Assembly: GCA_035266225.1 (NCBI GenBank)
Contig: DATFNV010000336.1
Location: forward strand, 134 to 64,133
Direction of reading: 5' to 3'
From: Gemmataceae bacterium
GTDB taxonomy: Bacteria > Planctomycetota > Planctomycetia > Gemmatales > Gemmataceae
DNA length: 64,000 nucleotides
In this document: positions 14,837 through 15,400 of the stretch, in pieces
Layout of the letters: every line of letters begins with the position of its first letter
Position numbering within the stretch: position 1 is the first letter of the stretch
The notes under the pieces: generated by a model
The model's input: the letters and a program-made list of their open reading frames with translations, nothing else
Databases searched by the model: none
Told to the model about the DNA's origin: nothing
Position numbers and translations under genes: made by a program

Positions 14837-14962
14837 TCAGGCGCGCTTGCGCGTCAGCCAGCGCGAAAGCAACGACCAGCCGACGAAGAAGCCGGCGGCG
14901 AACAGCACCAGCAGCACCGGAACGTGCTGCGCCTCGACGTGGTGCGCGAAGAGCGGCGTCAT
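14837..14962 (-). CDS. 41-aa single-TM peptide (MTPLFAHHVEAQHVPVLLVLFAAGFFVGWSLLSRWLTRKRA)
   Basis: ATG 14962 is in ATGA overlap with the stop of the upstream mini-ORF. One hydrophobic helix, a His-rich N-terminus and a basic tail. Lies between the B12 riboswitch and cobN. Confidence 0.4.
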   Translation of the reverse strand: MTPLFAHHVEAQHVPVLLVLFAAGFFVGWSLLSRWLTRKRA

Positions 14963-15087
14963 GACGGCCTCCTTTCGCGCAGGGCGGCCAGCCAGCGGCC
15001 GGCGGCGCCGACGACGATCCCGATCAGCAGCACCAGGCCGCACATGAGGATTTCGTCTTCCGGGAGCATTTCGTGCCATCGGTCCAT
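14959..15087 (-). CDS. 42-aa single-TM peptide (MDRWHEMLPEDEILMCGLVLLIGIVVGAAGRWLAALRERRPS)
   Basis: ATG 15087 is preceded by GGGAGGAC 8 nt upstream. It is the first start codon with a Shine-Dalgarno sequence after the riboswitch. One hydrophobic helix and a basic RWL..R tail like its neighbour. Confidence 0.4.
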   Translation of the reverse strand: MDRWHEMLPEDEILMCGLVLLIGIVVGAAGRWLAALRERRPS

Positions 15088-15264
15088 GCGATCGGTCCTC
15101 CCTGGCCGCCGCACGACGGCGGCGAGCCGGCAAACTATGCACCTCGGCGGAACTGGCTGGGGGAGGAAGAAAGGCGGTGGCGAAGTGAGGCCGTCATCGG
15201 CCACGTGAGCCGGTCCGGAGTCCGCACACCGTTGCTCCCGTCCCCTTGCCGCGAGGTTACGTCA

Positions 15265-15400
15265 GAGCGTGACAGGGGCGGTCGATCTGGCTCCCGGGGA
15301 GAACGGCTCCGCGGTTACAGTTGCGGGACAGCGCCGGACTTGAACCGGCTTCGCCTTTATGCCCTGGCTTCCGGGCCGATGGGCACCCCTGTCGCGTATC
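15265..15400 (-). promoter_or_regulatory. cobalamin (B12) riboswitch
   Basis: The minus strand reads GACAGGGGTGCCC...GGAAGCCAGGGCATAAAGGCGAAGCCGGTTCAAGTCCGGCGCTGTCCCGCAACTGTAACCGCGGAGCCG...GGGAGCCAGATCGACCGCCCCTGTC. P1 is GACAGGGG/CCCCTGTC (15386-15393 / 15271-15278). The conserved core GCCGGTnnAAnnCCGGCnCnGnCCCGCAACTGTAA and the B12 box AGCCAGAnnGACCGCC are both present. Located 5' of the cob operon. Confidence 0.85.

Follow-up and report, generated by a model that had tools for sequence, protein, structure and literature searches.

Downstream of cobalamin riboswitches in Planctomycetota: a conserved pair of tiny membrane peptides as a candidate cobalt-capture module

What does a cobalamin (vitamin B12) riboswitch control when the first frames behind it are neither a known cob gene nor a known transporter gene? 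The question is raised by a 64,000-nucleotide (nt) stretch of a Gemmataceae bacterium (GenBank assembly GCA_035266225.1, contig DATFNV010000336.1, positions 134 to 64,133; hereafter the window), in which such a riboswitch is followed on the minus strand by two overlapping open reading frames, ORF1 and ORF2, encoding peptides of 42 and 41 residues. GenBank labels both products, in a Gemmataceae metagenome-assembled genome (MAG), merely as hypothetical proteins. An initial annotation, made from the sequence alone, had singled out the two frames and offered cobalt or corrinoid uptake, a chaperone function or regulatory leader peptides as candidate roles. Here, we report that both frames are genes and that the pair belongs to the B12 regulon. 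Among the candidate roles, one related to cobalt is the best-supported guess, as a gene for one or the other class of cobaltochelatase follows the pair directly in about 24 of 31 loci.

ORF1 (14959..15087, minus strand; HKI34077.1) is translated as MDRWHEMLPEDEILMCGLVLLIGIVVGAAGRWLAALRERRPS and ORF2 (14837..14962, minus strand; HKI34076.1) as MTPLFAHHVEAQHVPVLLVLFAAGFFVGWSLLSRWLTRKRA; each product is predicted to cross the membrane once, and both assignments are backed by homologues and by substitution rates. The stop codon of ORF1 and the start codon of ORF2 overlap as ATGA. A Shine-Dalgarno (SD) sequence, GGGAGGA (15096..15102, minus strand), precedes the ORF1 ATG at 15087 by 8 nt, and a second one, AGGAGG, is located inside ORF1 (14968..14973, minus strand), 5 nt before the ORF2 ATG at 14962. 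In related loci, an AGGAGG-like motif is found at the equivalent site before ORF1, while the SD of ORF2 is kept as AGGAGG or GGGAGG, 5-7 nt before the ATG, in nearly all cases. The first translated units after the riboswitch are hence two ATGA-coupled single-helix peptides, for which the initial annotation had given the correct coordinates and sequences.

DNA with such a high GC content often contains short ORFs by chance alone (2.5 kb held 26 with 25 or more residues), and the case for two genes therefore rests on comparative evidence. ORF2 has 25 close homologues with 72-95% identity and ORF1 has 19 with 71-100% identity, the latter all of about 42 residues. A profile search with ORF2 against 1.84 billion 50% representatives returned 48 matches, about 38 of them small proteins of 38-62 residues, and a second-round profile gathered 314 clusters at 90% identity, all of them tiny proteins devoid of Pfam domains and of informative names. 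One match, in a Hadarchaeum (L011), was discarded as a false positive corresponding to a helix of a multi-pass membrane protein. DNA was available for 31 loci, namely the window, six genome loci (L005-L010), L001, 20 metagenome loci and three further contigs, with near-duplicates among them (L016/L017, L021/L022 and L028/L029). ORF1 lies beside ORF2 in all 31 loci, and the ATGA overlap is present in 26; the remaining pairs display a 3-nt gap (L020, L023), a 1-nt overlap (L034), an ambiguous GTG start (L024) or a 60-nt spacer (L027). The ATG of ORF1 is placed exactly four codons before a conserved histidine (H5) in 20 of 23 loci, and its length is 42-43 residues throughout. In the long-read MAG locus L006, ORF2 (3001-3128) carries a 1-nt insertion after codon 11 and is perfect in the shifted frame, the insertion being probably a sequencing error.

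The pattern of substitutions points the same way. The initial annotation had predicted that frames of no consequence would show synonymous and non-synonymous changes equally distributed; we found instead that synonymous changes are favoured, with a median ratio of non-synonymous to synonymous rates (dN/dS, Nei-Gojobori) of 0.44 for ORF1 and 0.34 for ORF2, and of 0.33 and 0.24, respectively, in the close group. Out-of-frame controls on the same DNA gave dN/dS values of 0.7-2.0 for ORF1 and 1.1-2.2 for ORF2. The third codon position is the most variable in both ORFs, and conservation at the protein level extends down to about 35-50% identity with frame, length, start and SD preserved. Given the homologues, the constant pairing, the fixed start and length, and the purifying selection, ORF1 and ORF2 are genuine genes.

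The riboswitch itself is a full-length match to the Rfam cobalamin family RF00174 (15260..15405, minus strand; Infernal cmscan, model positions 1-189), with a score of 52.0 bits (E 4.5e-10) against a gathering score of 31.5; no other Rfam family was matched by Infernal in the whole window. The B12 riboswitch claimed by the initial annotation is thus borne out, over a span (15405..15260) slightly exceeding the 15271-15393 originally proposed. RF00174 is also found upstream of the pair in relatives, as the initial annotation had suggested checking: in addition to the window, genome loci have it in 6 of 7 cases, metagenome loci in 14 of 20 and the further loci in 2 of 3, and several of the loci lacking a match have too little upstream sequence. 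The pair is therefore kept beside B12 riboswitches in most loci.

All genome matches come from Planctomycetota MAGs (Gemmataceae, Pirellulales and unclassified), and the family appears restricted to this phylum. Across the 31 loci, the next gene downstream encodes CobN in about 21, the long form of CbiX (CbiX-long) in three and CobT in three, the short contig L031 being uninformative for the neighbourhood; the pair stands directly before a cobaltochelatase of either class in about 24. In the CobN context, the order is riboswitch, pair, CobN, and in seven loci (six distinct) the stop of ORF2 and the ATG of cobN share nucleotides, so that the three genes are chained there. In the CbiX context (L010, a Pirellulales, and L021/L022), CbiA comes first, then the pair, then CbiX-long, which includes a thioredoxin-like [2Fe-2S] domain, and finally CbiC; no riboswitch was found near the pair. 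In the CobT context (L028-L030), a riboswitch and one other gene are followed by the pair, 1.3-1.8 kb downstream of the riboswitch, and then by CobT, CobS, a FecCD permease, an ATP-binding cassette (ABC) ATPase, CbiB and CobU.

In the window, a spacer of 85 nt separates ORF2 from a cob operon of about 14.5 kb, which opens with the large cobaltochelatase subunit CobN (10363..14751, minus strand; 1462 residues), recognised by PF02514 (1381 bits, residues 263-1429) and TIGR02257 (1243 bits against a cut-off of 822). Its first ~125 residues (14377-14751, minus strand) form a Cys-rich extension, C-x3-CCC ... C-x3-C, which includes the stretch SGCLGPCP. No Pfam model matched this extension; BLASTP aligned it (E 6e-07) with the C-terminal domain of the L010 CbiX-long, a ferredoxin-like domain of the thioredoxin-like [2Fe-2S] type, and NCBIfam gave a weak match to a 2Fe-2S ferredoxin model. 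The same extension occurs in every CobN downstream of the pair. We know of no described Fe-S domain on CobN, and the family also brings to notice an undescribed ferredoxin-like extension of this enzyme.

Both peptides share a simple plan. ORF1 is composed of an acidic head with H5 and E10-D11-E12, a transmembrane (TM) helix with C16 and G23xxxG27, and a basic tail, RWLAALRERRPS; ORF2 is composed of a head, LFAHHVEAQH, a TM helix with P15 and G24xxxG28-W29, and a basic tail, SRWLTRKRA. The signature of ORF1 reads M-[DEG]-x-[LF]-H-[EQ]-M-L-[PVI]-E-D-E, followed by a helix with C16-G17 and G23xxxG27, and its most distant members read MDFLHDLHSDDMILLGS..., retaining H5, the acidic cluster and GxxxG. 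That of ORF2 reads x(2-4)-[LF]-A-H-H-[LVI]-E-x-x-H-x-P-[VI]-L ... G-x-W-x-G-W, with H7, H8 and G24 invariant and A6, E10, G28 and W29 nearly so. Each peptide has one 19-residue hydrophobic window with a mean Kyte-Doolittle value of 2.3. The net charge of the N-terminal flank is -3 for ORF1 (with one His) and -1 for ORF2 (with three His), and that of the C-terminal flank is +3 and +4, respectively; following the positive-inside rule, both peptides should therefore lie with the N-terminus outside and the C-terminus inside (N-out/C-in), i.e. in parallel. The presence of two GxxxG motifs at equal depth suggests that the two helices pack against each other.

The initial annotation had also pointed to a basic RWL..R tail shared by the two peptides. 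As a sign of relatedness, this does not hold: hhalign gives a probability of 5% and BLASTP an E-value of 0.56 for ORF1 against ORF2, and we rejected paralogy. The RWL tail is confined to the close group and differs in distant members.

How might such a pair act? We propose a heteromeric, N-out membrane module for cobalt capture and hand-off, in which topology, heteromer formation, metal binding and the link to cobalt are all inferred from sequence and gene context, and we give this proposal roughly even prospects. The acidic and His-rich N-terminal heads would face outward and the basic tails would be cytoplasmic, while ORF1 and ORF2 would assemble into a hetero-oligomer via the invariant GxxxG. 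H5, E10, D11 and E12 of ORF1 would then meet H7, H8, E10 and H13 of ORF2 at the outer face of the cytoplasmic membrane, creating a putative divalent-metal site from which captured Co(II) would be handed on across the membrane to the cobaltochelatase, the product of the adjacent downstream gene. A minimal conduit is one form that the pair could take; more probably, its members would be small subunits that capture the metal for a transporter. Under abundant B12, the riboswitch would stop initiation at ORF1, through control that is presumably translational rather than transcriptional, and the coupling from ORF1 to ORF2, and on to cobN in many relatives, would spread the repression downstream.

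Cobalt capture and hand-off is favoured because the pair adjoins chelatases of two non-homologous classes, because its predicted outward head carries His and carboxylate residues, because a Pfam scan recognised no cobalt transporter in the window operon, and because a 2009 survey, which had three Planctomycetes genomes at its disposal, recorded none of the known Ni/Co transporter families in them (PMC2667541, Table 2). Several points weigh against it. In L028-L030, what follows the pair is cobT/cobS and a FecCD-type ABC permease instead of a chelatase, a context that suits corrinoid salvage or late membrane steps equally well, and in L033 the pair and cobN are present with no RF00174 match. 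Two helices of 40 residues are very small for an autonomous transporter, and no larger partner was identified. The check for other cobalt importers in these genomes covers the flanking sequence retrieved for each locus.

A bolder version holds that the two peptides alone would constitute a minimal hetero-oligomeric cobalt conduit, the tails of which would dock onto the ferredoxin-like domain of CobN or CbiX-long, so that cobalt would enter the corrin pathway straight from the membrane, with no need of CobW or another cytosolic metallochaperone. We regard it as improbable; if true, such a conduit, consisting solely of peptides some 40 residues long, would be a metal importer of a new kind.

The adjacency to chelatases can also be read without any movement of cobalt. 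The pair would then assist the chelatases with a ferredoxin domain, or the membrane-bound late enzymes CobS and CbiB, as a partner in membrane docking, assembly or regulation, and it might anchor CobN or CbiX at the membrane or influence their activity. This is in line with the tight adjacency to CobN, whose start is often overlapped, and to CbiX-long, with the homologous thioredoxin-like Fe-S domain on both chelatases, and with the occurrence of CobS in the window operon and directly downstream in L028-L030. A database protein of 148 residues (P0089) even reads as ORF2 joined to the N-terminus of CobN; however, it is frameshifted past the fusion point and is for that reason probably an assembly artefact. 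Moreover, the best-conserved residues are those of the His/acidic head, predicted to face away from the cytoplasm where the enzymes sit, and no one enzyme neighbours the pair in all contexts. On balance, we find a docking partner unlikely.

The CobT context lends itself to another alternative, in which the pair would be an accessory to the uptake or salvage of corrinoids (B12 or cobinamide), for instance as small subunits of a BtuCD-like importer. The riboswitch-controlled operons of L028-L030 bring together CobT, CobS, a FecCD permease, an ABC ATPase, CbiB and CobU, with no substrate-binding protein seen nearby, and B12 riboswitches commonly govern corrinoid transport (PMC7689651). Yet in those ~24 of 31 loci, whose operons lack FecCD, the gene directly after the pair encodes a cobalt-inserting enzyme of the de novo pathway, and a His/carboxylate head fits a metal cation better than a corrinoid. 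A role in corrinoid uptake is improbable.

If, instead, the two frames were regulatory leader peptides (upstream ORFs), their translation rather than their product would set the expression of the cob operon, an option that the initial annotation had left standing. In the window and in most Gemmataceae loci, they are indeed the first ORFs after the riboswitch, and they show translational coupling towards cobN. The pair is, however, internal to operons elsewhere, between cbiA and cbiX in L010 and L021/L022 and behind another gene in L028-L030, and L033 gave no riboswitch match. Purifying selection, conserved length, GxxxG and charge asymmetry span the whole peptides, and no codon run able to sense a metabolite is present. 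The CbiX and CobT contexts, together with the selection along entire peptides, thus argue that the product of the pair matters and not merely its translation, and a leader-peptide function is very improbable. Lastly, the notion that both are chance frames, of the kind that high-GC DNA yields in abundance, within a riboswitch-controlled leader whose conservation would stem from the RNA structure of the expression platform, is effectively refuted by the depth of protein conservation with frame, length, start and SD kept, by dN/dS values well under those of out-of-frame controls, and by pairs found without any riboswitch nearby.

Among known systems, the closest likeness to a cobalt-capturing pair is with CbtB, which acts with CbtA (PF09489/PF09490, TIGR02459/TIGR02458). 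Like the peptides of the pair, CbtB is very small and crosses the membrane once; it carries a putative metal site rich in His, and its gene lies in cobalamin operons controlled by B12 riboswitches. A role of CbtAB in cobalt transport was proposed from genomic context (PMC2667541; PMC2773004), and knock-down of cbtB by CRISPR interference relieved cobalt toxicity in Methylococcus (PMC13108547). ORF2 combines one TM segment with an A-H-H-x-E-x-x-H motif, which is N-terminal to the helix. The His motif of CbtB is C-terminal to its TM helix. The two systems differ in range, CbtB being found in Proteobacteria and Actinobacteria and the pair, as known, in Planctomycetota only, and in partner, CbtB being associated with the five-helix CbtA and ORF2 with the 42-residue single-helix ORF1. 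Neither the window operon nor the neighbouring genes that were scanned yielded a CbtA domain. Neither the peptides nor longer in-frame versions of them matched CbtA, CbtB or CbiN profiles (Pfam at E<=10; NCBIfam), in keeping with the statement of the initial annotation that they do not look like CbtA/CbtB, for which neither Pfam nor NCBIfam gave a match even at E<=10. The pair may be regarded as analogous to a CbtB-type component in function, outside the CbtB family.

A second comparison is with CbiN of the energy-coupling factor (ECF)-type importer CbiMNQO, likewise a small membrane protein for cobalt uptake encoded with B12 genes and, like the pair taken together, possessing two TM helices in total. 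CbiN, however, is a single chain of about 100 residues folded as a helical hairpin, whereas the pair consists of two peptides predicted to be parallel and N-out/C-in, and a Pfam search found no CbiM, CbiQ or CbiO in the window operon. Small proteins of the KdpF, MgtS and MntS class, of 30-45 residues, often have one helix, are co-regulated with metal homeostasis and bind a larger membrane protein. In contrast to the pair, they are single peptides without a conserved His/carboxylate head, and none is known to be linked to cobalt or B12; no homology to them was detected in Pfam, NCBIfam and PDB searches. Other known small-protein families gave only sub-threshold, transmembrane-type noise (Mitoregulin, LapA, cytochrome b558; Pfam and NCBIfam) and were rejected. 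PDB sequence searches with both profiles yielded nothing meaningful, and no description of the pair in Planctomycetes was found in the literature searched.

The family is thus conserved, riboswitch-controlled and wholly unannotated, and it adjoins, on the 5' side, genes for two unrelated classes of cobaltochelatase. It would fill a plausible gap as a candidate for the missing cobalt-supply component of the B12 pathway in Planctomycetota, and a concrete one, with two synthesisable peptides and three or four obvious ligand residues. Should its function turn out to be ordinary (e.g. that of an accessory subunit), it would still provide a new marker gene of the B12 regulon in this phylum. It also exemplifies the functional small proteins that standard annotation calls 'hypothetical'.

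By what means would the riboswitch act on ORF1? Its ATG lies about 172 nt past the 3' end of the aptamer, and conservation in this leader of about 170 nt is limited to the ~40 nt next to the aptamer. The conserved part corresponds to a box, ACGCUC..CCUCGCGGCAAGGGGACGGGAGCA (15233..15270, minus strand), which is near-invariant in Gemmataceae-type leaders while the rest of the leader is variable. This box of about 38 nt, with the pattern ACGCUC...CCUCGCGG-AA-GGGGAC-nGGAGCA, straddles the 3' end of the RF00174 match, which reaches 15260, and runs about 27 nt beyond it; the cmscan match includes its 5' 11 nt only as an unpaired tail. Nested pairs are possible between GCUC and GAGC and between CCUC and GGGG, and from this pairing pattern the box is probably a regulatory hairpin of the expression platform, which may be similar to P13/L13. 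The sequences of the box are too conserved for a covariation test. At the same position, L026 and L028-L030 have another hairpin (GAUGCU-loop-AGCAUC).

The initial annotation had proposed that a pyrimidine tract sequesters the SD of ORF1. This tract, CUUCCUCCCC (15160..15169, minus strand; CTTCCTCCCC), indeed contains a perfect 7-nt complement to GGGAGGA, and this part of the claim stands. The helix itself is possible but obtained no support from shuffles, from the fold or from positional conservation. Across 12 related leaders, with 200 composition-matched shuffles each, duplexes of the SD with the leader were no stronger than those of shuffled sequences (z -1.7 to +1.3), and duplexes of the conserved purine box with the leader interior likewise gave z values scattered about 0. 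In the minimum free energy fold of the leader, which is unremarkable as a whole (z +0.65), the tract (15169-15160) pairs with an upstream purine run, GGGGACGGGAG. The tract is not positionally conserved in the leader alignment, though pyrimidine-rich stretches recur in relatives. No intrinsic terminator was seen in the leader. The window leader resembles the btuB type of riboswitch in its RF00174 aptamer, its length and its strong SD, and its purine box, pyrimidine tract and SD are mutually complementary. The alternation of a sequestering helix with a competing one (anti-ribosome-binding site and anti-anti-ribosome-binding site) is well established for btuB (PMC7689651); unlike there, the proposed sequestering helix of the window lacks support from shuffles or alignment. 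A three-part switch of the btuB type, made of purine box, pyrimidine tract and SD, is hence plausible but unproven.

Beyond CobN, the co-directional cob operon of the window (520..10317, minus strand), delineated from Pfam matches and ORF layout, continues with a ChlI/ChlD-like chelatase subunit, CobB/CbiA, CobS, an aminotransferase, CobQ, CobO, CbiX and a tetrapyrrole methylase. A single operon thus encodes chelatases of two classes: class I, with CobN and the ChlI/ChlD-like subunit, and class II, with a CbiX-type protein of 307 residues and two CbiX repeats (1306-2229, minus strand). The latter could serve sirohaem rather than B12.

The spacer between ORF2 and cobN contains a hairpin with a perfect 30-bp stem (14763..14826, minus strand; RNA fold of -69.9 kcal/mol, z -11.5), which we considered as a dedicated terminator or attenuator and rejected. 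Chance would predict 0.09 matches to its arm, GCCGCTTGCGGCTT, in the window; there are 19, most of them arranged as inverted pairs, and additional copies of the palindrome are located around 20198-20279, 22868-22911, 24224-24272, 38708, 42146, 42808-42867, 49789-49829, 54574-54614 and 58159-58218. In relatives, the same spacer harbours a shorter variant (L006), unrelated hairpins (L001, L012) or none (L005). Being a dispersed palindrome similar to repetitive extragenic palindromic (REP) elements, and replaced or absent in relatives, the hairpin is not specific to this system.

Upstream of the riboswitch, the window carries a gene of the beta-lactamase family (15462-16913, minus strand; 483 residues) and, beyond it, a divergent gene encoding a CHAT-domain protein of 1094 residues (16901-20185, plus strand). 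Upstream neighbours vary among relatives, with rpsO/pnp in L001 and a SEC-C protein in L032, and the conserved unit therefore begins at the riboswitch. In L028 (1484-2946), L029 (3999-5450) and L030 (4456-5889), B12 riboswitches of about 100 bits stand directly before genes that are not usually associated with B12 and are themselves followed by the pair. The gene in question encodes a DUF1559/N-terminal-methylation (pseudopilin-like) protein in L028 and L029, of a family typical of planctomycetes, and a DUF1289+DUF6925 fusion in L030.

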